Assembly (NCBI GenBank): GCA_963742245.1
Contig: CAVULG010000009.1
Span: forward strand, 84,169 to 148,168
DNA from: an uncultured Acidobacteriota bacterium
GTDB lineage: Bacteria > Acidobacteriota > Thermoanaerobaculia > UBA5066 > Gp7-AA6
Direction: 5' to 3'
DNA length: 64,000 nt
Each line of letters begins with the position of its first letter. The first letter of the stretch is position 1. Positions 5,700 through 46,005 of the stretch are shown one piece after another. The position numbers and the translations under genes are program-made. A model generated the notes under the pieces. The model had not been told where the DNA came from. It worked only from the letters and a program-made list of their open reading frames with translations, and ran no database searches.

Positions 5700-7052
5700 C
5701 TAGCGTTTCTCCATCGGCACGAACGCCCGTTCGCCCTCGCCGAGGTACACCTGGCGGGGCCGCGCGATCTTCTCCTCGGGATCCTCGAGCAGCTCCTCCC
5801 ACTGGGCGAGCCAGCCGGAGGTCCGCGGGATCGCGAAGAGCACCGTGAAGGCCGCCGTGGGGATGCCGATCGCCTGGTAGATCAGGCCGGAGTAGAAGTC
5901 GACGTTCGGGTAGAGCTTGCGCTTGACGAAGTACTCGTCCTGCAGCGCGATGCGCTCGAGCTCGAGCGCGATGTCGAGCAGCGGGTTGCGTCCCGTGACC
6001 TCGAAGACCTCCTCGGCCATGCGCTTGATGATCTTGGCGCGCGGATCGAAGTTCTTGTAGACGCGGTGGCCGAAGCCCATGAGCCGCTTCTCGCCTTTGC
6101 CTTCCTTGACCTCTTTGATGAACGCGGGCACGCGGTCCTTCGTGCCGATCTCCTCGAGCATCTTGAGGACTTCCTCGTTCGCGCCGCCATGGAGCGGGCC
6201 GTAGAGGGCCGCCGCCGCACCCGCCACCGCCGAGTACGGGTCGGTGTGCGCCGAGCCGATGCCCCGCATCGCGTTGGTGCCGCAGTTCTGCTCGTGGTCC
6301 GCGTGGAGGATGAAGAGCGCGTCGAGCGCGCGCACGAGCGTCGGGTTCGGCTTGTAGTTCTCGGCCGGCGTCTTGAAGAGCATCGTCAGGAAGTTGGCCG
6401 TGTAATCGAGCTCGTTGGACGGGTAGACGTAGGGCATGCCCATCGAGTGCTTGTAAGCGAAGGCCGCGATCGTCGGCATCTTGGCGATCAGGCGGTGGAT
6501 CTGTTTGGTCCGCACGGCCGGATCGTGGACGTCGCGCGCCTCCGGGTAAAAAGTCGACATGGCCGCGACCGTTGCGATGAGCATCCCCATCGGGTGCGCG
6601 TCGTAGTTGAAGGCGTCCATGACCTTCTTCAGGCTCTCGTGGATCATGGTGTGGTACGTGACCGCGTGGACCCAGTCCTCGTACTGCTGCCGGTTCGGGA
6701 GCTCGCCGTAAAGAAGAAGGTACGCGACCTCCATGTAGTTGCACTTCTCGGCGAGCACGTCGATCGGATAGCCGCGGTACCGGAGGATGCCCTTGTCGCC
6801 GTCGATGTACGTGATGCGGCTGGCGCAGGCGGCGGTGTTGAGAAACGCCGGGTCGTAGGTCATGAGGCCGAAGTCTTCCGGCCCGGTCTTGATCTGGCGC
6901 AGGTCCGTGGCGCGGATGGTGCCGTGGGCGATCGGGACTTCGTAGACGCGCCCCGTCCGCTCGTCGCGGATCGTGAGCGCGTCCCGCTTGTCGCCGGCGG
7001 GGGCCGCCTTGTCTTCTTTTTCCTCGCCTTTGGCCGCTTCCACGGTGCCCAT
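5700..7052 (-). CDS. gltA: citrate synthase
   Basis: 450 aa. Motifs HADHEQN and GFGHRVYKNFDPRA. GGAGG Shine-Dalgarno 5 nt upstream of the ATG. Confidence 0.95.
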   Translation of the reverse strand: MGTVEAAKGEEKEDKAAPAGDKRDALTIRDERTGRVYEVPIAHGTIRATDLRQIKTGPEDFGLMTYDPAFLNTAACASRITYIDGDKGILRYRGYPIDVLAEKCNYMEVAYLLLYGELPNRQQYEDWVHAVTYHTMIHESLKKVMDAFNYDAHPMGMLIATVAAMSTFYPEARDVHDPAVRTKQIHRLIAKMPTIAAFAYKHSMGMPYVYPSNELDYTANFLTMLFKTPAENYKPNPTLVRALDALFILHADHEQNCGTNAMRGIGSAHTDPYSAVAGAAAALYGPLHGGANEEVLKMLEEIGTKDRVPAFIKEVKEGKGEKRLMGFGHRVYKNFDPRAKIIKRMAEEVFEVTGRNPLLDIALELERIALQDEYFVKRKLYPNVDFYSGLIYQAIGIPTAAFTVLFAIPRTSGWLAQWEELLEDPEEKIARPRQVYLGEGERAFVPMEKR

Positions 7053-7129
7053 GGGGACCTCCGCGGCTATTCTCTAACGGATTTCGCGAGAAACCTCGCG
7101 AGCGTCGAACTGCTCTTAGAATTGCCGCC

Positions 7130-7597
7130 GTGCCGGACACACCGAGCCTTCAGGACACCTTCGCGCCGAACAACCTCTGCTTCGGCTGCGGGCCGGCCAA
7201 TGCAAAGGGTCTCCGGATCAAAAGCTTCGTCGAGGGGGACACGCTCGTCGCGCAATGGCGCCCCGAGCCGCACCACGTCGCCTTCGACGGGATCGTCAAC
7301 GGCGGCATCTGCGGCGCGCTGCTGGACTGCCACAGCAACTGGACGGCGGCCTGGCACCTCATGCGGCGGTCCGGCGCCTCGACGCCGCCCTGCACGGTGA
7401 CAGCCGACTTTCACGTCACGTTGAAGCGCCCGACCCCGATCGACGCGACCCTGCTTCTCACCGCCCGGGTCGCCGAGTCCTCCGAGGACCGGGCCGTCAT
7501 CGACGCCACCCTCGAGGCCAACGGAAAGGTCACGGCCACCTGCCGCGGCACGTTCGTGGCGGTCCAGCCGGGTCACCCGGCGTACCACCGATGGTGA
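7130..7597 (+). CDS. PaaI-family hotdog-fold thioesterase
   Basis: 155 aa. N-terminal CFGCG motif and NGGICGALLD hotdog core. GTG start 7 nt after a TAGAAT box. Confidence 0.7.
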   Translation: MPDTPSLQDTFAPNNLCFGCGPANAKGLRIKSFVEGDTLVAQWRPEPHHVAFDGIVNGGICGALLDCHSNWTAAWHLMRRSGASTPPCTVTADFHVTLKRPTPIDATLLLTARVAESSEDRAVIDATLEANGKVTATCRGTFVAVQPGHPAYHRW

Positions 7598-7598
7598 G

Positions 7599-8351
7599 GT
7601 GGTGAAAGGCCGGGCCCTGCTCGCCGCGGCCCTCTTCGCGGGCCTCCCGGCGCTGGCCGCGGCGGCGCCGCCGCCCGAAGTCGCCGAGCGGACGGTCCTC
7701 TCCCGCGAGAAGAAGCGCACCTACGCTTTCTACGTCCCCGCATCCGTCAAGCCGGACGCGAAGGCGCCCCTGCTCGTCCTGATCCACGGCTCGACGTCCA
7801 ACGGAAAGACCATCCTGTCGCGCTGGACCGGCATGGCGGATGCCCACGGGATCATCCTGGCGGCGCCGAACGCCATCGACAACTCCCGCTGGGCCTCGCC
7901 GGAAGACGGGCCGCTCTTTCTCAAAGACGTCGTCGACGACGTCGCAAAGCTATACGCGATCGACGGCCGCCGCATGTACATTTTCGGCCACTCCGCCGGC
8001 GCCGTTTTCGCGCTCCAGATGGCGTGCCTCGAATCGCTCTATTTCGCGGCGGGCGCGATCCACGCCGGCGCGGTGAGCTCGGACTTCTTCTCGCTCTTCG
8101 ACTTCGCGCAGCGGAAGATCCCGCTCGCGATCTTCATCGGGACCCGGGACCAGTTCTTTCCGCTCGACGTCGTCCGCGCCACGAACGAGGCCCTGAAGAA
8201 GCGCAATTTCCCGCTCCTCTACGAGGAGATTCTCGACCACGCGCACGACTACTCGAAGGTGGCGCCGGACATCAACCCCAGGATCTGGACGTTTTTCGAG
8301 GCCCATCCCCTGCCCGAGGACCCGCGCTACACGGCCTTCAAGGACCCCTAG
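7599..8351 (+). CDS. secreted alpha/beta hydrolase (PHB-depolymerase/esterase family)
   Basis: Signal peptide, nucleophile elbow GHSAGA, and LLVLIHG oxyanion region. GTG start. Confidence 0.7.
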   Translation: MVKGRALLAAALFAGLPALAAAAPPPEVAERTVLSREKKRTYAFYVPASVKPDAKAPLLVLIHGSTSNGKTILSRWTGMADAHGIILAAPNAIDNSRWASPEDGPLFLKDVVDDVAKLYAIDGRRMYIFGHSAGAVFALQMACLESLYFAAGAIHAGAVSSDFFSLFDFAQRKIPLAIFIGTRDQFFPLDVVRATNEALKKRNFPLLYEEILDHAHDYSKVAPDINPRIWTFFEAHPLPEDPRYTAFKDP

Positions 8352-8423
8352 GCCAGCCTGTCTCTCTTACCGGCCGGGAGGCCAGTCGCCAAAGCACCGG
8401 CCGAGCCGTACACTTCCTGCACC

Positions 8424-10838
8424 TTGAAATCCGGCCTGCTTCGTGCCGCAGCGGCTTCCTGCGCGCTGATCGCCGCGGGGACCGCGTCCGCCGCGACGAG
8501 CTTCCAGCTCGCGTACCTGTCGGCGACCTCGGGACCCGCCTCGGGGGGAACGCCACTGTCGCTCGTCGGCAACCAGTTCACCGCGGGCGCCTCCGCGTCG
8601 ATCGGCGGCACGCCGGTCTCCGCCTCGGTCGCGAGTCCCACGCGGATTGCCGCGACGGCTCCCGCGCTGACCGCCGGGATGCTCCACGACGTCACCGTCA
8701 CGTCGGGCGGCCCCTCGGCGACGTTGCCGAAGGCCTGGTTCGCCGATTACCTCGACGTTCCGCAGTCGAGCCCCTTCCACGCGCCGGTCGAGACGATCGC
8801 GCGCGACGGAATCACCTCCGGCTGCGGCGGGGGCAACTACTGCCCGGGCAACTCGATCACCCGCGCGCAGATGGCCGTGTTTCTGCTCCGCGCGGCGCAC
8901 GGCGGCGGATACACGCCGCCTCCGGCGACCGGAACGGTCTTCGCCGACGTACCCCTCGGCACCTTCGCGGCCGACTGGATCGAGCAGCTCTATTACGACG
9001 GCGTCACCGGGGGCTGCGCGGTCTCGCCGTTGCGCTACTGTCCCACCGCATCCGTGACGCGCGGCCAGATGGCCGTCTTTCTCCTGAAGGTCTACCACGC
9101 GATCTCCTACGCGCCCCCGCCGGCGCAGGGCGTGTTCGGCGACGTGCCGGTCTCTTCGCCGCTCGCGCCCTGGATCGAGGAGCTCGCGCGCCTCGCGGTG
9201 ACCTCGGGCTGCGGCGGCACCTCCTACTGCCCCGGCAACGCCGTCACGCGCGGGCAGATGGCGGTCTTCATGGCGAAGACCTTCCACCGCGACGAGGCCG
9301 TCCGGTTCCTCGAGCAGGCGACCTGGGGCCCGAACGACGAAGAGATCGGCAAGCTCCTCGGGCTCGGGATCCTCCCGTGGCTCGGCGCGCAGTACGCCAC
9401 GCCGGCGACGAGCTATCCGGTCCTGCCGATGTGGCCGGACACGGTGCCCGACTCCTGCGACGAGGCGTGCCTCATCGCGAACTACTCGATGTATCCGATG
9501 TACACCCGGCTCTTCCGCAACGCGATGTACGCGCCCGATCAGCTCCGCCAGCGGATCGCCTGGGCGCTTCACAAGCTCGTCGTCGTCTCCGCGGACACCG
9601 TCTATCAGCCCAGCCGCATGTCGCCGTACCTGCGCCTGCTCGACCAGCACGCGTTCGGCAACTACCGCGACCTGCTCTTCAACGTCACGCTCAACCCGGG
9701 CATGGGCGAGTTTCTCAACATGTCGACGAGCACGAAGTACGACCCCAACGAGAACTACGCGCGCGAGATCCTCCAGCTCTTCACGATCGGGACGGAGAAG
9801 CTGAATCCGGACGGCACGACGCAGAACGACGGCGGCGGGCTCCCCCTGCCGACGTACAACCAGGCCGTCATCGACCAGCTCAAACTCGTGTTCACGGGTT
9901 GGTACATCCCGGACATCCAGTGCCCGGCGCCCAACGGCGGCGACGACTGCTGGGACTACGGGCCGCCGATGGCCCACGACCCGGACTACCACGACACCAA
10001 CTCCAAGACGCTCTTCGCGGGCTTCCTTCCCAACGCGACCGTGATCCCGGCCGGACAGACGGGCGCGCAGGACCTCGACGCCGCGATCACCGCGATCTTC
10101 CAGCATCCCAACGTCGGGCCCTACCTCTCGCGCGAGCTCATCAAGAGCCTCGTCACGTCCAATCCCTCGCCGGCGTACATCGAGCGCGTCGCCGGATTTT
10201 TCGACGACAACGGCTCGGGGGCGCGCGGCAGCCTCTGGGCGGTCGTCAAGGCGATCCTGCTCGATCCCGAGGCGCGCACCGAGCCTGCCGACCCGGTCTA
10301 CGGCCACCTGCGCGAGCCGGTGCTCTACATCAGCGCGATCCTGCGGGCGTTCGACGCGCGCGGCGCCGATCGGGCGACCGAGAGCGATGGAAACCTCTGG
10401 TGGGAAGCGCGCCAGCTCGGCCAGAGCCCTTTCCGGCCGCCGTCCGTGTTCTCGTACTTTCCGCAGTTCTACAACGCGCCTCCGGCGGCCGCCGGGATCC
10501 GGGGCCCGGAGTTCGGGATCCTGAACGCGAAGACCGCGCTCCAGCGAGCCAACTTCGTCAACCTCATGACGTTCTGGGGCGGGCTCCCCGCCGAGCCCGA
10601 GTGGCAGCTGCCGCTCGGAACCTCGCTCGATTTCTCGGAGCTCACGCTGCTCGCGAGCAATCCGGCGAACCTCGTCGACCGGCTCGACCGGCTGCTGCTC
10701 CACGGCACGATGTCCGACGCGCTGCGCGGCGCGATCGTCGACGCCGTCGCGGCCGTCGACCCGGGCTGGCCCGAGGGACGCGCATACCAGGCGCTCTATC
10801 TCGTCGCCGTTTCGTCCCAGTACCAGATCCAGAGGTGA
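8424..10838 (+). CDS. secreted DUF1800-domain protein with N-terminal IPT/TIG-like domain and three SLH-like repeats
   Basis: TTG start with a good signal peptide. Three roughly 60-aa repeats (F-x-DVP...GC...YCP...TR-x-QMAVF) at about nt 8745-9294. The C-terminal roughly 500 aa look like DUF1800. Confidence 0.75.
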   Translation: MKSGLLRAAAASCALIAAGTASAATSFQLAYLSATSGPASGGTPLSLVGNQFTAGASASIGGTPVSASVASPTRIAATAPALTAGMLHDVTVTSGGPSATLPKAWFADYLDVPQSSPFHAPVETIARDGITSGCGGGNYCPGNSITRAQMAVFLLRAAHGGGYTPPPATGTVFADVPLGTFAADWIEQLYYDGVTGGCAVSPLRYCPTASVTRGQMAVFLLKVYHAISYAPPPAQGVFGDVPVSSPLAPWIEELARLAVTSGCGGTSYCPGNAVTRGQMAVFMAKTFHRDEAVRFLEQATWGPNDEEIGKLLGLGILPWLGAQYATPATSYPVLPMWPDTVPDSCDEACLIANYSMYPMYTRLFRNAMYAPDQLRQRIAWALHKLVVVSADTVYQPSRMSPYLRLLDQHAFGNYRDLLFNVTLNPGMGEFLNMSTSTKYDPNENYAREILQLFTIGTEKLNPDGTTQNDGGGLPLPTYNQAVIDQLKLVFTGWYIPDIQCPAPNGGDDCWDYGPPMAHDPDYHDTNSKTLFAGFLPNATVIPAGQTGAQDLDAAITAIFQHPNVGPYLSRELIKSLVTSNPSPAYIERVAGFFDDNGSGARGSLWAVVKAILLDPEARTEPADPVYGHLREPVLYISAILRAFDARGADRATESDGNLWWEARQLGQSPFRPPSVFSYFPQFYNAPPAAAGIRGPEFGILNAKTALQRANFVNLMTFWGGLPAEPEWQLPLGTSLDFSELTLLASNPANLVDRLDRLLLHGTMSDALRGAIVDAVAAVDPGWPEGRAYQALYLVAVSSQYQIQR

Positions 10839-10843
10839 CACGC

Positions 10844-12301
10844 ATGCGCCGAAGCTCGAGATCCTCCCGACGCGAATTCCTGAGGCGCACGGCGTGCGCC
10901 GCTGCGAGCGCCGCGGCCGCCCAGGCCGGCTTTTCGAAGCTCGGCCTCATGAACCTCTACGCGCGTCCGCTCGCGCCGAGCGACTACCGCGCCCTCGTCT
11001 GCGTGTTCCTCGACGGAGGCAGCGACACCAACAACGTGATCATCCCGACCGACACGACGCACTACAACCAGTACATCGCGGCACGCCCCATCGACTCGGG
11101 TCTCGGCATCGACGCGGCGGACCTGCTGCCGATCGACACGCCGCCCGTCTTCGGCGGCACCGGGCGCACGTTCGGTCTGCACCCGAGCCTCACGGAGCTC
11201 CAGGGGCTCTTCAACGACAACAAGATGGCGGTCGTCTGCAACGTCGGCCCGCTCGTCGAGCCGGTGACCCAGCAGGACATCACCGACGAGAGCAAGCCTC
11301 TCCCCTACGCCCTCTTCTCCCACTCCGACCAGGTCGGCTGCTGGGCGACGGGACGCGCGGACCAGCGGATCCCGACGGGCTGGGGCGGCCGCATCGCGGA
11401 CGCGACGCTCGCCTGCAACACGGCCTCGGGCTTTCCGACGGTCACCTCGATCGACGGGGCGGCCGTCTTCACGCTCGGTCTCGCGCAGAACCCCCTCGCG
11501 ATCGACACGGGCGCGCTGGACCAGGTCCTCGTCCTGAACGGCTACTACGGCTCGCCCGGGGACGTGGCCCGCAAGAACGCGATGGACTTCGCGCGCACGA
11601 TCGACCGTTCGGCCCTGCTGATGGCGGCGACGAGCGACCTCACGCAGCAGGCGGTCGACATCAGCGGCGCCTTCTCAGTCGATCCGACGATCGGGACGAC
11701 GTTTCCCTCGACGTGGCTCGGCGACCAGCTCCTCCAGGTCGCCAAGGTCATGAAGCTCAACCTGACCTCGCCGCAGCTCTCGCTCAACCGTCAGATCTTC
11801 TTCGTCACGCAGGGCGGGTACGACACCCACCAGAGCCAGGGCCCCGATCACGCGGCCCTCCTCTCGGATCTCTCGGCCGCGCTCTCCGCCTTCTACGCCG
11901 CGACGCAGGAGCTCGGCCTCGCCGACCGCGTCACGTCCTTCACCCTCTCCGACTTCGGCCGCACGCTCGGGCCTTCCGGCGACTACGGCTCGGTCGGCAC
12001 GGATCACGGCTGGGGCAGCCACCAGCTCGTTCTCGGCGGCGGCGTCAACGGCGGCGACTTCTACGGCACGCCCAACGGCGCCACCGGCTCGATGTTCCCG
12101 GAATTGGTCTACGGCGGGCCCGACGACGTCTCGCCGTACGACCGGGGACGCTGGATTCCGACGACGGCTGTGGAGCAGTACGGCGCGACGCTGGCGAGCT
12201 GGTTCGGCGTGCCGGCGGGAGATCTCTCGACGGTCTTCCCGCTCATCGGCAACTTCGGCAGCACGAACCTCGGTTTCCTCGGCGCCGGCTCGGGCTGCTG
12301 A
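10844..12301 (+). CDS. DUF1501-domain protein (Tat-exported, sulfatase-like fold)
   Basis: ATG 10844 lies inside ORF 8024..12301. Twin-arginine signal SRREFLRR, plus DGGSDTNN and GTDHGWG motifs. It is the classic partner of DUF1800. Confidence 0.85.
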   Translation: MRRSSRSSRREFLRRTACAAASAAAAQAGFSKLGLMNLYARPLAPSDYRALVCVFLDGGSDTNNVIIPTDTTHYNQYIAARPIDSGLGIDAADLLPIDTPPVFGGTGRTFGLHPSLTELQGLFNDNKMAVVCNVGPLVEPVTQQDITDESKPLPYALFSHSDQVGCWATGRADQRIPTGWGGRIADATLACNTASGFPTVTSIDGAAVFTLGLAQNPLAIDTGALDQVLVLNGYYGSPGDVARKNAMDFARTIDRSALLMAATSDLTQQAVDISGAFSVDPTIGTTFPSTWLGDQLLQVAKVMKLNLTSPQLSLNRQIFFVTQGGYDTHQSQGPDHAALLSDLSAALSAFYAATQELGLADRVTSFTLSDFGRTLGPSGDYGSVGTDHGWGSHQLVLGGGVNGGDFYGTPNGATGSMFPELVYGGPDDVSPYDRGRWIPTTAVEQYGATLASWFGVPAGDLSTVFPLIGNFGSTNLGFLGAGSGC

Positions 12302-12308
12302 CGGGACC

Positions 12309-12334
12309 GGGCCGGGGACGAGCCCCGCCCCTAC
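12309..12334. repeat. REP-like hairpin, CTAC-type (single copy)
   Basis: GGGCCGGGG-ACGAG-CCCCGCCC-CTAC lies just after the DUF1501 stop. Confidence 0.7.
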
Positions 12335-12516
12335 GAAGACGGCCGGGGCTGCACGCCGGGTAGAATCCGCCTACGAACCCCGAAGTCGCCGCTGCCATCG
12401 ACTCGCTTCGCGACCGAAGCATCCTGACTGATGCCCAGGCGGCTGCCTTCCGTCCCGTTGCGCGCGGGGATCTCGTCTCCGTTCGCGCGCTGCTCCGCCT
12501 GCTCCTCTACGGCGGC

Positions 12517-40735: not shown

Positions 40736-41635
40736 CTACGGTGCGAGCCCCGGCTCGTAGTACATGAGGAACTCCAGGAACTTGATCGCCTCGATCATGT
40801 CCTTGCCGCGGAACCGGATCGCGTGCGCGTCGGTGCGCTCGACGATCGGGAGATAGGCGAGGACCTCGGACGGCCGGTAGTTCTTGAAGCGCACGTCGAG
40901 GACGACGGGCGGGGCGACCACGTAGGGTTTGAAGCTCGAGAGCCGTCCGAGCGCCGTCTTCGCCGCCTCGCGGATCTTGTCGCAGCTCGCTTCGGGGGTG
41001 AGCGTGCGCGCGGAGTGAAAACCATAGTTCCACTTGACGACGGCGCCCTCGATCGGCCCCAGCAGCGCCTGCGCCTCCTTGACCGCCGCGTCGTCGCCCG
41101 TGATCAGCGCGACGGGCACCTTGAAGTGCCCCGCGACCGCAGCGTCGAGGCCCGCCTCCGGAACGGAGACGCCGTTCAGGCGCACGTCCGCGAGGTTGGC
41201 GGACGACATCGTGTGCGCCCGGACTCCCTCGGTCGCCGTGGTCGAGGAATGGAACCCGACGAAGAGCACGGCGTCGAAGGAGGCGTCGATCCCCTGCATC
41301 ATCGCGAGGGGCCGCGGCCACGAGCGGACGATCTGGACGTCCTTCGGGAAGCGCTCGATCAGGAGGTTCTGTCCGTTCCCGTGCGAGTCCGCGACCAGGA
41401 TCTCGGTCGCGCCGGCGGCCCGCGCGCCTTCGATCGCGGCGAGCACCTCGTTGGTCATGAAGCCGCGGAACCGCTCGTACTCGAAGCCCGGGGGTCCGAG
41501 CTGTTCGCCGCTCACGACGCCGGCGATGCCTTCCATGTCGGCGGCGATGAAAACCTTGAGCTTCCTCGGCTGCGCGAGCGCTGGAAAAGCGAGAAGGAAC
41601 GCGAGCGCGGGAAGGAACCGGGCGCCGCGCCTCAC
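40736..41635 (-). CDS. M55-family D-aminopeptidase (DppA-like), exported
   Basis: GTG 41635 lies inside ORF 40736..42514. Signal peptide, then VFIAADMEGIAGV and ADSHGNG motifs. Confidence 0.8.
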   Translation of the reverse strand: MRRGARFLPALAFLLAFPALAQPRKLKVFIAADMEGIAGVVSGEQLGPPGFEYERFRGFMTNEVLAAIEGARAAGATEILVADSHGNGQNLLIERFPKDVQIVRSWPRPLAMMQGIDASFDAVLFVGFHSSTTATEGVRAHTMSSANLADVRLNGVSVPEAGLDAAVAGHFKVPVALITGDDAAVKEAQALLGPIEGAVVKWNYGFHSARTLTPEASCDKIREAAKTALGRLSSFKPYVVAPPVVLDVRFKNYRPSEVLAYLPIVERTDAHAIRFRGKDMIEAIKFLEFLMYYEPGLAP

Positions 41636-42441
41636 AGCCCGCCGCCCGTCGCCGGGGCTTCCGTCTTCGCCCCCTTCGGCATCGCGAAGCGCGAATCGTC
41701 GATCGTCACGTCGAGCTCGATCTTGTCGAACACGAGCGACTGCGTCTCCTCCACGTCGGGCGTGGACGCCGAGTACGAGTGCGGCAGCATGAGACCGCCG
41801 ACCTTGCGGTAGTCGCCGATCCGGCTCTTGATCTCGATGGGCCGTCCGTCGACGCTCCGGCGCGACACCGTCAGAACCTGGAGGTATGTCTTCGCGTCGA
41901 GGTACAGATCGCGCGACTCGCCGTTCTTGCGCGTGATGCGCAGGCGCCAGGCTTCGATCGCGCGGCCGCCTTCGCCCTCGCCCTCGAGCGTTTCCTTGCC
42001 GACGAGCTCGATCGTGTTGCCCTTGGCCAGGGCGTCGACGAGCGGTCCGTCCATGTCGGCCTGCATCTCGATGTCGCGGGTCTCGGCATCGGTCATGATC
42101 CGCGGCTCGACCTGCCCCGCGAACGGCATCACGGCCCAGGCCGTTTTTCCGTCGAACGCCTGGATGGCCATTTGGCCGTCGAGCGTGAACTCCCAGCGCG
42201 CTTTGGCAGGACGCTTGAGCTCCAGCACGGTCGGCAGCTTGTCCTGCCCCAGCCGCATCGCCCCCGTCATGCGCATCGATTGAACGGCCTGGATCTTCTC
42301 CAGGCCGCCGCGCGCCTCGAGGTTCTTTGCCACGAGCTCCTCGGCGGTGGGGGTCTGTTCGGCCGCGAGGGCCGCGGCAAGTCCGAGGGCCGCAGCGAGT
42401 CCGAGGGCCGGCACGGGCAAACCGCGCATCGTTTTGTTCAT
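41632..42441 (-). CDS. LolA-like outer-membrane lipoprotein-sorting family protein (tentative)
   Basis: Signal peptide, a roughly 240-aa beta-rich sequence, and an N-terminal AEELVAKNLEARGG motif typical of this family. Confidence 0.5.
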   Translation of the reverse strand: MNKTMRGLPVPALGLAAALGLAAALAAEQTPTAEELVAKNLEARGGLEKIQAVQSMRMTGAMRLGQDKLPTVLELKRPAKARWEFTLDGQMAIQAFDGKTAWAVMPFAGQVEPRIMTDAETRDIEMQADMDGPLVDALAKGNTIELVGKETLEGEGEGGRAIEAWRLRITRKNGESRDLYLDAKTYLQVLTVSRRSVDGRPIEIKSRIGDYRKVGGLMLPHSYSASTPDVEETQSLVFDKIELDVTIDDSRFAMPKGAKTEAPATGGGL

Positions 42442-42492
42442 TCCACGCTCCCGTTCGGCGCGACTCTAACCCAGGCCCCCCGGCCGAGGGTG

Positions 42493-42525
42493 TATATAGA
42501 GCCCCACCAAACACTCGGAGGGAGG
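42493..42525 (+). promoter_or_regulatory. putative promoter -10 (TATATA) and Shine-Dalgarno (GGAGGGAGG) of the RyR/4TM/TIR operon
   Basis: An AT-rich hexamer at 42493-42498 stands out in GC-rich DNA. The Shine-Dalgarno at 42517-42525 lies before GTG 42531. Confidence 0.4.
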
Positions 42526-42530
42526 CGCGC

Positions 42531-42818
42531 GTGGTCTACAAGCCCTCGCCCCGCGACACTTCGGGCGTCCGCCTGCCTCGCGAGATCGCCGAGCTGACGG
42601 AGCTGCTCGCGAGGAACACGCACGAGAACTGGGCGCGCCAGCGCATCGCCGAAGGCTGGCGCCACGGCCCGCAGCGCGACGACGCGAAGAAGGAGCACCC
42701 TTCGCTCGTTCCCTACGAAGAGCTGCCCGAGTCCGAGAAGGAATACGACCGCACGACCGCGATGGAATCGATCAAGACGATCCTCGCGCTGGGATACCGG
42801 ATCGAGAAGAAGTCGTGA
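42531..42818 (+). CDS. stand-alone RyR-domain protein
   Basis: GTG 42531 lies 6 nt after GGAGGGAGG. 95 aa. IAELTELLARNTHENWARQRIAEGWRHGPQRDDAKKEHPSLVPYEELPESEKEYDRTTAMESIKTILALGY matches the RyR (PF02026-type) repeat pattern. Confidence 0.85.
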   Translation: MVYKPSPRDTSGVRLPREIAELTELLARNTHENWARQRIAEGWRHGPQRDDAKKEHPSLVPYEELPESEKEYDRTTAMESIKTILALGYRIEKKS

Positions 42819-43933
42819 GCGCCGCCGACGCGCCGCGCAAGCCCGACACGGCCGAGCGCGACGACGACATGCACGACCCGACCGATCGGGGCAAGGCGTT
42901 TCCGCTGGGTCCCTTCCTGCGCCTCTGCGATCCGTACGACGGGAAGAAGGGGCCCGAGCCGTGCCTGCGCACGGACTTCGATGACGCGGACCGGCGCGCG
43001 GCCGGAGGTCAGGGTGCGCACAGTTTTCTCGTGGTCGCATCGGTGCTCTGCGGTCTGACCGCGATTTTCTGGGGACTCGGGTCGCAGCTGCGTCGGCCGT
43101 GGCCTCCCTCCCCCGACGAAGTGCACGGTGGCGCGGGTTGGTGGTTCGAGGCGGGATTGACCGGTCTGGCTTTGATCCTCGTGCTCTGGACCCTGATTCG
43201 CGCGACCCAGAAAACGTGGCTGATCGAGCGATACAAGGCCGAGCACCTGCGCCTCATCAAGTTCCGGCTTCTCATCGAGCCGTCCCTCTGGAACGGCGAC
43301 GTCAAAGACATGCAGGACCTGCAACACGATCTGGAGACGCGGCGCGCGAAAGTCGCCCATGCCCCGCACAAGCTGCTCGAAGCGCTCGCGCACAGCGATG
43401 CCCTTCCCGATCTCCCGTCGACCGAGTCCTGCCGCCGCGTCGATCTCGTACAGCTCCAACGGCTCCTCGATTACTACCGGCGCAAGCGCCTCGACTTTCA
43501 GCTGCGGTATTTCGAACGGAAGATGGGCGAGAAGCTGTCGTGGCTCGACAACAGTCTCTGGCAACCGGTCTTCTTTTTCGTCGCGATCGGACTGAGCGCC
43601 TTCAATCTCATGCTCGAGAGTCCGTGGAGCCAGCCCTCCAACGCAGCGATCGTGCGGGTTCTGGTGTTCGGATCCCTGGCGGTGCCCTTCGGTTGGGCCG
43701 CCATCCGAACGCTTCGGGGCGCACACGAGCGTGTCCGCAACCAGGCGCGCTCCCACGCCCGGTACGACTCGCTCGCGGAGATTCGCCGCAGCCTCGACGC
43801 CGAGGTCGCCCGGGACGCCGAGCATCTCGACCCGACCAAGATCTTCGGCTACCTCTACCTCTGCGAGGGCCTCCTCGCGGCCGACCAGCACGAGTGGCTG
43901 CGGCTGATGACCGAGGCCGAGGCGTATGGCTGA
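42815..43933 (+). CDS. 4-TM protein with two SLATT-like 2TM modules
   Basis: The GTG start overlaps the RyR stop (GTGA). TM pairs lie at about aa 68-129 and 250-299. Each pair is followed by an amphipathic helix. The segment QLRYFERKMGEKLSWLDN precedes the second TM pair, as in SLATT/DUF4231 proteins. Confidence 0.6.
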   Translation: MSAADAPRKPDTAERDDDMHDPTDRGKAFPLGPFLRLCDPYDGKKGPEPCLRTDFDDADRRAAGGQGAHSFLVVASVLCGLTAIFWGLGSQLRRPWPPSPDEVHGGAGWWFEAGLTGLALILVLWTLIRATQKTWLIERYKAEHLRLIKFRLLIEPSLWNGDVKDMQDLQHDLETRRAKVAHAPHKLLEALAHSDALPDLPSTESCRRVDLVQLQRLLDYYRRKRLDFQLRYFERKMGEKLSWLDNSLWQPVFFFVAIGLSAFNLMLESPWSQPSNAAIVRVLVFGSLAVPFGWAAIRTLRGAHERVRNQARSHARYDSLAEIRRSLDAEVARDAEHLDPTKIFGYLYLCEGLLAADQHEWLRLMTEAEAYG

Positions 43934-44870
43934 CGTCTTCATCTCTTACGCGCACCAGGACGGCGAGATCGTCCGGGAGCTCTCGCCCGCGCTCGAGGCC
44001 GCCGGCTACACGACCTGGTACTACGAGGACAAAGGCGCCGTCGGCGCCTCTTATCTCCTGCAGATCGACCAGGAGATCGAGCGCTGCCACGCCGTCGTCG
44101 TCGTCATCTCTCCGGACTCGGTCGGCTCGGACCAGGTTTCCAAGGAAGTCATCCGCGCGCACGAGTCGCGCAAGAAGTTCATCCCCGTCCGCCACGGCCT
44201 CACGCACGACGAGTTCCAGCGGCGGCAGCCCGAGTGGCGGATGGCGTTCGGCGCCGCCGTCTCCGCGGAAGTCCCGCCCGAGGGCGCGCGCGCGATGGCG
44301 GGACGAATCGTCGCCGGGTTGAAGAAGCTCGGCGTGGAGCCGGGCGGCCCGCCCGCCCTGCCGTCCTCGCCGCTGCGGCGGCTCTCGCGCGGCGCGATCA
44401 AAGGCCTGCCGGCGACCGACACGGGTCTCGGAGGCATCGTGGCCGGAATCGTCGGCCTGCTCGGGATTCCGTGGGCGCTCTTCTATCTCCTGAAGGCTCT
44501 GACGCCGCCGGAGGGAACGGCCGGAGGTTTCGTCCTGTCCACGTTTCCGGGTTTTCGGACCGCGACGATCCTGCTGAATCTCGCGGGCCTCGCCCAGAAC
44601 GCGCTCCTGCTCTATGGAGCCTGGCTGCTGCGCCGCAAGGACGCCCGCGGCGCGCCGCTTCTGAAGAAGGTCTCCGTCTCGATGCTCGCGACCGTCGGGC
44701 TCTGGCTGCTGGTGTCGCTCGCGTCCTTCACGGGCGAGAGCGCGCGACGCGCCATTCCAGATGCCAACTCGCGCAGCGGTCTCGTCGTGGCGACGATCGT
44801 GGCCGGAATGATCGCTCTCGTTCCGTCGGGCCTCGTCTTCGGCCTCTTCCGCAACGCCGGCAAGCGCTAA
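43926..44870 (+). CDS. TIR domain protein fused to 4-5 C-terminal TM helices
   Basis: The ATG overlaps the upstream stop by 8 nt. DVFISYAHQD beta-A strand, and VVVISPDSVGSDQVSKEV with the conserved Glu (E74). The region from aa 165-310 is hydrophobic. Confidence 0.85.
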   Translation: MADVFISYAHQDGEIVRELSPALEAAGYTTWYYEDKGAVGASYLLQIDQEIERCHAVVVVISPDSVGSDQVSKEVIRAHESRKKFIPVRHGLTHDEFQRRQPEWRMAFGAAVSAEVPPEGARAMAGRIVAGLKKLGVEPGGPPALPSSPLRRLSRGAIKGLPATDTGLGGIVAGIVGLLGIPWALFYLLKALTPPEGTAGGFVLSTFPGFRTATILLNLAGLAQNALLLYGAWLLRRKDARGAPLLKKVSVSMLATVGLWLLVSLASFTGESARRAIPDANSRSGLVVATIVAGMIALVPSGLVFGLFRNAGKR

Positions 44871-44895
44871 GAGCTAAGGATAGTCTTCCGTCCGC

Positions 44896-46005
44896 ATGCA
44901 ACGGATCGAAGACCTCCCGACGCCCTCGGTCCTCGTCGACCTCGACATTCTCGAGCGCAACGTCCGCGCGATGCAGGATCGGGCGCGGGAGGCCGGCGTG
45001 AAGCTGCGGCCCCACGCGAAGACCCACAAGTCCCCGGAAGTCGCGCGCCTGCAGCTTTCGGCGGGGGCGAGCGGGCTCACCCTCGCGAAGACGTCGGAGG
45101 CGGAGGTGTTCGCGGCTCTCGGCTTCGACGACATCTTCCTCGGCTATCCCATATTCGGCGCGGACAAGGCGCGCCGCCTCCTGGCTCTGGCGGACCGAAT
45201 CGCCTTGACCGTCGGAGTCGACAGCGAGGAGGGCGCACGGAGTCTCGGCGCCGTCTTCCACGCCGCCGGACGCCGGCTGCCCGTGCGCCTCAAGATCGAC
45301 TGCGGCTATCACCGCGTCGGCGTCGCGCCGGAGGCCGCCGTCGGGATCGCCCGACGCGTCGCGGAGATACCGGGCATTGCGTTTTCCGGTGTCTTCACTC
45401 ACGGCGGGCAGGGATACGCCGGCAGAACTCCGGAAGAGGTCGCCGAGGCCGGTCACATCGAGGGCCGCGTGGTCGCCGAATCCGCCGACGCGATCCGCTC
45501 CGCCGGGCTTCCGGTCGAGGAGGTGTCGCTCGGCTCGACACCCACCGTGCGCTCGGCGCTCGGAGAGAGCGGCATCACCGAGTGCCGTCCGGGCACCTAC
45601 GTGTACAACGACTTTTCCCAGGCCACGCTCGGCAGCTGCGGTCTCGAGGACTGCGCCATGACGGTCGTCGCCACCGTCGTCAGCGTGCCGGCCGCGGACC
45701 GCGCCGTGTGCGACGCGGGTTCGAAGACGCTTTCGACCGATCCGCTGCGCCCCACGGGCGCGGGGCACGGGGCGATTCTCGGCGAGGGCACGGCCAATCT
45801 GCGCAAGAGCCGGATCGCGAAGCTCTCGGAGGAGCACGGCGTGATCGCCGTCGAGCCCGGCGAGTCCTTTCGCGTCGGCGAGCGCATCCGCATTCTTCCC
45901 AACCACGCCTGCATCGTTTCCAACCTCCACGACCGTCTGGTCGCGGTCCGCGGCGGACAGGTCGAGGGCGTCATCACGGTCGCCGCGCGCGGCTGCGTGC
46001 AGTAG
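44896..46005 (+). CDS. D-TA-family PLP enzyme (D-threonine aldolase/D-serine dehydratase-like, alanine racemase N-domain fold)
   Basis: The PHAKTHK PLP-lysine motif and a C-terminal HACIV...L pattern. 369 aa. Confidence 0.75.
   Translation: MQRIEDLPTPSVLVDLDILERNVRAMQDRAREAGVKLRPHAKTHKSPEVARLQLSAGASGLTLAKTSEAEVFAALGFDDIFLGYPIFGADKARRLLALADRIALTVGVDSEEGARSLGAVFHAAGRRLPVRLKIDCGYHRVGVAPEAAVGIARRVAEIPGIAFSGVFTHGGQGYAGRTPEEVAEAGHIEGRVVAESADAIRSAGLPVEEVSLGSTPTVRSALGESGITECRPGTYVYNDFSQATLGSCGLEDCAMTVVATVVSVPAADRAVCDAGSKTLSTDPLRPTGAGHGAILGEGTANLRKSRIAKLSEEHGVIAVEPGESFRVGERIRILPNHACIVSNLHDRLVAVRGGQVEGVITVAARGCVQ

Follow-up and report, generated by a model that had tools for sequence, protein, structure and literature searches.

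A translationally coupled RyR, SLATT-like and TIR operon of an uncultured Acidobacteriota bacterium: a candidate Thoeris-like membrane-associated signalling system

TIR-domain NADases of the AbTir, BtTir and BtpA type act on nicotinamide adenine dinucleotide (NAD+) and produce 2'cADPR and 3'cADPR, isomers of cyclic ADP-ribose (cADPR). In type VII Thoeris, the TIR protein ThsB and the SLATT protein ThsH provide anti-phage activity via canonical cADPR (Yirmiya et al., 2025 preprint, 10.64898/2025.12.03.692087). Phages in turn encode RyR-domain proteins, such as RyDEP (mycobacteriophage DyoEdafos gp78), that bind or cleave 2'cADPR and 3'cADPR; other phage RyR homologues are nanomolar sponges, and the catalytic and sponge types are inseparable by sequence alone (2026 preprint, PMC13232231). 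A second such protein, RyR Tad (Pectobacterium phage CB1 gp68), binds 3'cADPR with a dissociation constant of 43 nM and both 2'cADPR and canonical cADPR at below 1 µM (2026 preprint, 10.64898/2026.06.04.730250). A 2022 survey had already described TIR-SLATT neighbourhoods and predicted SLATT to be an effector regulated by ADP-ribose derivatives, and made no mention of RyR. Here we describe an operon that brings together a RyR-domain protein (gene A), a tandem SLATT-like membrane protein (gene B) and a membrane-anchored TIR protein (gene C). It lies in a 64,000-nucleotide stretch of contig CAVULG010000009.1 (assembly GCA_963742245.1) from an uncultured soil Acidobacteriota bacterium, referred to below as the window, to which all coordinates refer unless a locus number is given.

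Three coupled genes and their predicted products

Genes A, B and C lie on the plus strand and form one translationally coupled operon. Gene A (42531..42818) starts with GTG and encodes a 95-residue protein with a single RyR repeat recognised by Pfam. Gene B (42815..43933) encodes a 372-residue protein with four transmembrane (TM) helices, the predicted effector, whose description as a tandem SLATT-like (ThsH-like) protein draws on hydropathy, an AlphaFold2 (AF2) model and family-level SLATT matches. Gene C (43926-44870, 314 residues, TAA stop at 44868-44870) begins with a TIR domain (residues 1-140, 43926..44345), a predicted NAD+-consuming signal synthase identified by its TIR_2 match and Glu74, and ends in a four-helix membrane bundle seen in the AF2 helices (residues ~160-308 plus the stop codon, 44403..44870). 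Reading of the sequence gives a GTGA overlap at the A/B junction (42815-42818) and a ATGGCTGA overlap at the B/C junction (43926-43933), and the following gene begins at 44896. A preliminary description of the locus, made from the sequence alone, had reported three coupled same-strand open reading frames (ORFs) behind a spacer with a TATATA sequence and a ribosome-binding site, and all of these were found where it had placed them. Its domain assignments were borne out as well, those of RyR and TIR by Pfam and that of SLATT in B at the level of the family.

The product of gene A matches the Pfam RyR family (PF02026) over its full length (E=1.9e-36, profile positions 1-91 of 91, 124.6 bits against a cut-off of 27.4). 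In a search of PDB sequences it matches the 103-residue 'putative ryanodine receptor' 3NRT of Bacteroides thetaiotaomicron (E=5e-32) and the repeats of animal RyR1-3, with per-repeat E-values down to ~5e-20, and BLASTP aligns it with RyDEP over the core (E=8e-11). In the alignment with gp78, the RyDEP residues H75, W78, H100 and D117 correspond, with identical spacing, to H31 (42621-42623), W34 (42630-42632), H56 (42696-42698) and D73 (42747-42749) of A, which are its predicted ligand residues on the plus strand; across 78 distinct RyR domains adjoining B homologues the four are conserved at 100, 92, 84 and 89%, respectively. The catalytic His/Asp dyad of RyDEP is thus present in A as H31 and D73. 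From these correspondences A is predicted to be a cADPR-isomer binding subunit, and as a single RyR repeat it probably forms a dimer. Unlike an anti-defence phage factor, A is encoded on the chromosome, where its gene shares an operon with those for a TIR and a SLATT-like protein, at a site that is syntenic in 11 genomes.

RyR repeats also occur next to B homologues in other settings. Large multidomain proteins that end in one or two RyR repeats adjoin B homologues in Nitrospirota and Lentisphaerae (L030:7006-9555; L069:725-3433 and 6990-9869; L034:7044-8879 and 9846-12350), among them an 849-residue protein with RelA_SpoT, TPR, SLOG (LSDAT_prok) and two RyR repeats and a 959-residue protein with an AAA-ATPase and RyR. 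Evidently, RyR has been reused as a building block in a number of architectures of the conflict type.

Hydropathy places the four TM helices of B at residues 71-89 (43025-43081), 110-128 (43142-43198), 248-266 (43556-43612) and 279-297 (43649-43705), with every soluble segment predicted to face the cytoplasm, and the AF2 model has a predicted local distance difference test (pLDDT) score of 87.8 and a predicted template modelling score of 0.84. The NCBIfam SLATT_1 model matches B below threshold (E=0.002, 18 bits against a cut-off of 41). Among 27 B homologues, SLATT_3 is matched by 15, DUF4231 by nine and SLATT_1 by three, such that the SLATT_3 and DUF4231 matches fall on the first two-TM module and the SLATT_1 matches on the second. 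Foldseek comparison of the B model with the PDB returned nothing meaningful (best E=0.19, to ABC-transporter helices), so the SLATT identity gains no independent structural support from it. Likewise, hhalign of the N-terminal against the C-terminal half of B was not significant (E=0.19), and for this reason the internal duplication of B is to be read from the separate Pfam matches to its halves and not from self-similarity. The family is large: clustering at 50% identity leaves 421 clusters for E<=1e-30, a number that rises to 824 for E<=1e-10.

As a reference for B we used a ThsH-like protein (L090) located through the TIR of the validated Pseudohongiella type VII system given in Tables S1 and S2 of its source (10.64898/2025.12.03.692087). 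A ThsB 90% identical to the Pseudohongiella TIR has as its downstream neighbour a 294-residue ThsH-like protein with four TM helices, SLATT_3 at 12-163 (E=1.5e-42) and SLATT_1 at 167-288 (E=1.4e-32). Two further observations concern the B family. A regular-expression comparison of the N-terminal DDDMHD motif of B with RyR adjacency was uninformative, the motif being too variable beyond the close clade, and that it serves as a docking site for RyR is a guess. At L046:3868-5610, a 580-residue protein (SLATT_3/DUF4231 plus SLATT_1) lies directly 5' of a B homologue that has neither RyR nor TIR, so that two tandem-SLATT genes are adjacent there.

The TIR domain of C matches TIR_2 (E=5.7e-20 over residues 4-93) and, weakly, CAP12-PCTIR_TIR (E=5e-4), with ThsB_TIR (PF08937) at only 3e-3. 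Its nearest relatives in a PDB sequence search are BtTir and AbTir, and Foldseek with the AF2 model (mean pLDDT 86.4) ranks AbTir first (7uxu, template modelling score 0.79), followed by the TIR domains of SPARTA (TIR-APAZ), BtpA and SARM1. Glu74 (codon 44145-44147) aligns with the catalytic Glu of AbTir and BtTir, and all 58 distinct TIR domains compared from related loci have it (100%); the domain looks catalytically competent, in keeping with the preliminary description, which had taken it for an NAD consumer or signal generator. A disordered linker leads to helices at 163-192, 199-236, 242-276 and 280-308 (pLDDT >90), a tail that is conserved in ~40 full-length homologues and that follows a TIR domain within one protein in 12 of the 79 genome loci. 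This four-helix bundle anchors C in the membrane and may also be its sensing module.

The TIR proteins associated with B homologues are nearly all membrane proteins with an N-terminal TIR domain. Their C-terminal parts are of three types, namely one TM helix with a 150-600-residue extracytoplasmic region, four TM helices as in the window, and 8-10 TM helices; one carries an FGE-sulfatase-type ectodomain, and close TIR relatives elsewhere have WD40, LRR or TPR modules in place of the TM tail. Because this part is variable between loci, it looks like a sensing module. At L019:4629-5654 and in L014, L016-L018, L024-L026, L028 and L032 the gene order is TIR, RyR, B, and the TIR protein of the L019 type consists of TIR, one TM helix and a beta-rich extracytoplasmic domain of ~140 residues that has no Pfam match. 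This is the topology of a Toll-like receptor with the domain order reversed. We also considered PADLOC PDC-S66 as an identity for C and rejected it: only TIR residues 3-102 match the model, at positions 150-254 of 282 (E=1.2e-13), and the domain order of PDC-S66 differs from that of C. A and B have no PADLOC match.

Conservation, turnover and genomic surroundings

A fundamental question is whether the three genes are neighbours by chance. We scanned one genome per species, giving 79 loci, with partners identified by iterated hidden Markov model searches on six-frame ORFs. These loci come from Acidobacteriota, Gemmatimonadota, Planctomycetota, Verrucomicrobiota, Lentisphaerae, Nitrospirota, Myxococcota, Dormibacterota and Methanoperedens/Euryarchaeota. 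RyR lies directly 5' of B on the same strand in 61 of the 79 and anywhere in the locus in 66, and TIR lies within 6 kb in 56, either immediately downstream (17, of which 12 have the same four-TM tail), upstream on the same strand (18) or otherwise arranged (21). Since RyR is directly upstream of B in 61 and TIR within 6 kb in 56, the linkage is far above chance, and chance adjacency of three unrelated genes is ruled out by these counts. Homologues with as little as 33% identity in B, from different phyla and with unrelated flanks, still have the order RyR, B, TIR; the triad is thus a conserved module, and a self-contained one, as the preliminary description had proposed. Its proposal that RyR is a sensor or adaptor likewise fits the single-ORF fusions of RyR to B, which occur in seven of the 79 loci and in 4 of 149 top family representatives. 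Clustering of all neighbouring ORFs yielded no recurrent partners other than RyR and TIR, and the neighbours at TIR-less loci are mostly housekeeping genes, apart from isolated cases with a DUF4062-STAND-TPR protein, a second SLATT protein or a TPR-S adenylate/guanylate cyclase.

Three loci of unusual composition were seen in this sample. At L023:7260-10295, a 1011-residue protein with DUF4062 (TIR-like), a STAND NTPase and TPR lies directly 3' of a RyR-B pair that has no canonical TIR, for which it may substitute. At L074:3849-5870, a protein with TPR-S and an adenylate/guanylate cyclase lies directly 5' of a B homologue that has no RyR gene, and it could be an alternative signal generator. 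On the metagenome contig L008 (905-13006), a B homologue is accompanied by two RyR genes, of which one is a fragment, by a WD40 fragment and a 963-residue TIR-WD40 protein, and by a separate DUF4231/SLATT gene and Nmad2; this looks like a multi-component form of the system that has been rearranged or is decaying.

In 11 genomes the operon occupies a fixed site between the M55 peptidase gene and a D-Ser-dehydratase-like gene, which permits its divergence to be compared with that of its flanks. Across these syntenic genomes the flanking proteins are 66-88% identical and RyR 74-93% identical; B is mostly 22-40% identical, and TIR 27-49% identical between three allele classes. The TIR classes do not track the B alleles, in that the window and L064 share 85% identity in TIR and 22% in B, and L045 and L065 share 57% in B and 29% in TIR. 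In the closest relative (L011, an uncultured Acidobacteriota metagenome-assembled genome), C is cut at 7049-7237 to a 57-residue remnant with an in-frame internal deletion that joins the first TIR residues to the last TM helix, whereas neither RyR nor B is damaged (B is 77% identical to the window copy), and the signal-making gene looks to have been lost recently. Such fast exchange of B and C as modules, at an unchanging site and next to a strongly conserved ligand-binding subunit, is a signature typical of arms-race or conflict genes, and it argues against a purely housekeeping role.

The operon is preceded by an 89-nt regulatory spacer (42442..42530) that separates gene A from a divergent minus-strand gene and holds conserved motifs, all read on the plus strand. 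The motif GACTCTAACCCA (42462-42473) is kept ahead of RyR in every one of the 11 syntenic genomes, a -10-like motif GGGTGTATATAG (42488-42499) contains the TATATA sequence at 42493-42498, and the ribosome-binding site GGAGGGAGG (42517-42525) precedes the GTG at 42531. The TATATA box belongs to the motif GGTGTATA(A/T)(G/A)A, conserved 5' of the RyR gene in most of the 11 genomes, and it can be regarded as a piece of a conserved element because the GGTGTATAAGA motif, represented by TATATA in the window, recurs in full there in eight of them; the other three have a reduced ATAAG/GTAAG core. Common to all 11 are GACTCTA(A/C)CC, a GGAGG-like ribosome-binding site and the GTG start. A sigma-70 consensus scan of the spacer found no promoter. 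In the window the gap between GACTCTAACCCA and GGGTGTATATAG is ~14 nt edge to edge, and GACTCT to TATATA is ~25 nt, a spacing at odds with the usual -35/-10 arrangement of sigma-70 promoters; the two motifs could instead belong to an operator or to a promoter read by a different sigma factor.

The window has a G+C content of 69%, and its nearest relatives are uncultured Acidobacteriota and Thermoanaerobaculia metagenome-assembled genomes. The neighbours named in the preliminary description fared unevenly. The M55 peptidase was confirmed and the downstream pyridoxal-phosphate enzyme corresponds to Ala_racemase_N/D-ser_dehydrat in orthologous loci, but the 'LolA-like' label of the upstream gene (41632-42441, minus strand, 269 residues) could not be verified, as this protein has no Pfam match at E<=0.01. 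Its N-terminus is signal-peptide-like, and it occurs in only part of the syntenic genomes. The strong PADLOC matches of the window, among the families listed, look generic and are mostly to PD-T4-6 kinase models, for which a Ser/Thr kinase of the window probably accounts; single matches to mad3, mad6 and MkoA were not traced to a protein. Besides this kinase, the 49 proteins summarised for the window include two angiotensin-converting-enzyme-like Peptidase_M2 proteins and a Bax1-I (BI-1) family protein. No CBASS or Pycsar cyclase partner was found among the immediate neighbours or the most frequent Pfam families of these 49 proteins.

A proposed signalling pathway and its rivals

How might the three proteins work together? 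On balance, it is probable that the operon specifies a Thoeris-like membrane-associated signalling pathway, in which a membrane TIR protein makes a cADPR-type signal that is received by RyR and acts through a SLATT membrane effector. In such a pathway C, held at the inner membrane by its four-helix bundle, would upon triggering, presumably by a membrane or envelope event such as phage attack, convert NAD+ to a cyclic ADP-ribose-type messenger. The messenger would be bound by A in the H31/W34/H56/D73 pocket, A would act on B, and B would oligomerise or open, with the result that the membrane would be permeabilised or depolarised and the infection aborted. We infer the nature of the signal, the role of RyR as receptor rather than damper, the membrane damage and the anti-phage role. 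The rationale for placing RyR in the receptor position is its tighter linkage to B than to TIR, its translational coupling to B and the N-terminal fusions, since sensor domains are commonly attached to their effectors in the way that RyR is attached to B in these proteins.

Several observations weigh against this pathway. No TIR lies within 6 kb in 23 of the 79 loci. B itself has no Pfam match and is not recognised as ThsH or SLATT at curated thresholds, and the B-family profile aligns with the ThsH-like reference colinearly (B 49-236 to 9-185) and weakly (hhalign E=1.4e-4, probability 53%); because this alignment is weak, B is best described as a remote ThsH-like tandem-SLATT protein and not an orthologue. 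The TIR of C has no detectable similarity to type VII ThsB in BLASTP (E=0.88). ThsH needs no RyR protein beside it, and its predicted cADPR-binding site lies between SLATT protomers (10.64898/2025.12.03.692087), and B has numerous invariant cytoplasmic basic (Arg/Lys) residues; for these two reasons RyR is perhaps not the receptor. The surroundings also speak against a defence function, as the window encodes housekeeping proteins (citrate synthase, inositol-1-phosphate synthase, MsrA/MsrB, M55 peptidase, P5C reductase and transporters), the sampled loci are of the same kind, no defence island is apparent in either, and B relatives are absent from IMG/VR viral contigs, PLSDB plasmids and INPHARED phages. 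Among 141 immediate neighbours in 64 other loci, few match DpdF-like, QatA, patatin-effector or retron-XIII accessory models, a tally that stands without a genome-wide baseline.

The main alternative hypothesis keeps the same pathway and makes RyR its built-in damper, with B sensing the TIR product directly as proposed for ThsH. A would then sequester or hydrolyse stray cADPR isomers, which would set an activation threshold and provide a switch-off, like the ring nucleases of type III CRISPR. The independence of ThsH from RyR and the basic residues of B are as expected under this hypothesis, and so are the retention of the RyDEP dyad as H31 and D73 and the activity of the phage homologues as sponges or glycosidases. 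However, the RyR-B linkage is tighter than the TIR-B linkage, RyR-B pairs exist without a nearby TIR, several lineages have RyR joined to the B N-terminus in a layout typical of sensor and effector, and sequence cannot tell catalytic from non-catalytic RyR homologues. We regard a damper as unlikely, with the qualification that the two roles need not exclude each other: self-limiting sensors such as the CARF domains of Csm6 illustrate that sensor and damper roles can coexist, and a RyR receptor could combine both in the same manner.

A second alternative removes immunity from the pathway, such that the TIR protein senses an envelope or environmental cue and a RyR-gated SLATT channel tunes ion flux, membrane potential or dormancy as a housekeeping second-messenger function. 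The stable chromosomal site among housekeeping genes in at least 11 genomes, the lack of an apparent defence island and the absence of B from viral, plasmid and phage collections are all consistent with such a function, as are the receptor-like partner TIR proteins with TM and extracytoplasmic domains and the conservation of RyR above the flanking genes. Against this alternative stands the behaviour of the other two genes: B and TIR have diverged much more rapidly than the genes around them, alleles of the two are reassorted independently of each other at one site, and the TIR gene has decayed in the closest relative, as expected of conflict genes and not of core physiology. In addition, phage-host conflict is where the nearest characterised relatives act, both those of the TIR-SLATT pair and those of RyR. 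We consider it quite improbable. Least credible of all, and in our judgement very improbable, is that the TIR is itself the killing effector through NAD+ depletion, as in SPARTA, CBASS and Pycsar, with RyR and SLATT placed before it or alongside it, perhaps forming a sensor complex in the membrane by which the TIR is activated: the Foldseek matches to SPARTA TIR-APAZ, the weak CAP12-PCTIR_TIR match and the location of the TIR in the membrane beside another membrane protein are outweighed by the facts that known NAD-depleting TIR systems are never paired with SLATT or RyR, that SLATT proteins are established or predicted effectors, that TIR products are bound by RyR domains, that RyR-B pairs persist without TIR and so are unlikely to be mere TIR activators, and that no CD-NTase, pyrimidine cyclase or Argonaute genes lie nearby.

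Returning to the pathway with RyR as receptor, we hypothesize, tentatively and as a possibility rather than an expectation, that RyR is a native prokaryotic receptor for TIR-made cyclic ADP-ribose signals and gates a membrane-permeabilising SLATT protein, either as a separate polypeptide or fused to it. If so, the RyR fold would for the first time be assigned a sensor role in a host, nucleotide-based immunity would have a new sensor fold, and RyDEP and RyR Tad would be captured copies of a host receptor. To our knowledge, the bacterial RyR domain has so far been known only from phage counter-defence proteins and structural-genomics orphans, and it would gain a native cellular role. The eukaryotic ryanodine receptors would then be younger than the association of cADPR-type ligands with RyR domains and membrane ion flux, and the partner TIR proteins, with a TIR, a TM segment and a variable ectodomain or multi-TM region, would be Toll-like transmembrane sensors in bacteria and archaea. 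The long-running question of whether cADPR-type molecules act directly on RyR repeats could be tested with a minimal system of small proteins, RyR plus a four-TM partner. The B family, large and apparently uncharacterised, has no curated Pfam match at threshold and is spread over at least eight phyla, including archaea and poorly studied soil lineages.

Relation to described systems

The preliminary description had called the system a candidate undescribed one. This stands insofar as no PADLOC or NCBIfam model names it, but the combination of a TIR with a tandem-SLATT effector is already type VII Thoeris, and B has the same architecture. No report linking a host RyR domain with SLATT or TIR was found in the searchable literature. 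Among the entries examined, Tables S1 and S2 of Yirmiya et al. have no RyR effector category, and the 'ryr' strings in those tables are residues within TIR sequences (10.64898/2025.12.03.692087).

The closest likeness is to type VII Thoeris itself, in which a TIR with the catalytic Glu and a four-TM tandem SLATT_3 plus SLATT_1 protein are encoded in one operon of overlapping genes; by analogy, both systems would presumably turn an NAD-derived cyclic ADP-ribose signal into membrane damage. The differences are in each component. Type VII Thoeris has two genes, whereas the window has three, with an extra host RyR gene that is coupled to the SLATT gene and fused to it in some lineages. Its ThsB is a small soluble PF08937 protein, while C is an AbTir-like TIR_2 domain with four TM helices in 314 residues, and compared with ThsH, B has an extra ~40-50 N-terminal residues and longer linkers and falls under the Pfam and NCBIfam SLATT thresholds.

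With the phage proteins RyDEP and RyR Tad, A shares the PF02026 family and the same His/Trp/His/Asp spacing. Those proteins serve phage anti-defence, however, whereas A is host-encoded, shares its operon with a membrane effector and a TIR, is a minimal 95-residue single repeat that has no N-terminal extension, and is predicted to be a receptor or regulator of the host's own signal. The fused B relatives recall Repeat12 and Repeat34 of the eukaryotic ryanodine receptors in carrying RyR as a cytosolic module of a membrane protein; in contrast, A is a single repeat and not a tandem pair, its partner is a four-TM SLATT protein unrelated to the six-TM RyR pore, and no link to calcium is known. AbTir, BtTir and BtpA are the best sequence and structure matches for the TIR of C, which keeps their catalytic Glu and differs from them in being anchored by a C-terminal four-TM bundle.

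A more general resemblance is to type II Thoeris, with its TIR and the Macro-domain-TM protein ThsC, and to the CBASS SLOG-TM and SAVED-TM effectors, where a nucleotide sensor is combined with a membrane-disrupting TM module and the signal comes from a partner enzyme (10.64898/2025.12.03.692087). Compared with ThsC and these CBASS effectors, the sensor fold here would be RyR, for which no report of a host sensor role was found, and it is usually a separate polypeptide. What appears to be new in the operon is therefore the combination, that is, a host RyR component coupled or fused to a SLATT effector together with a membrane-embedded AbTir-like TIR.

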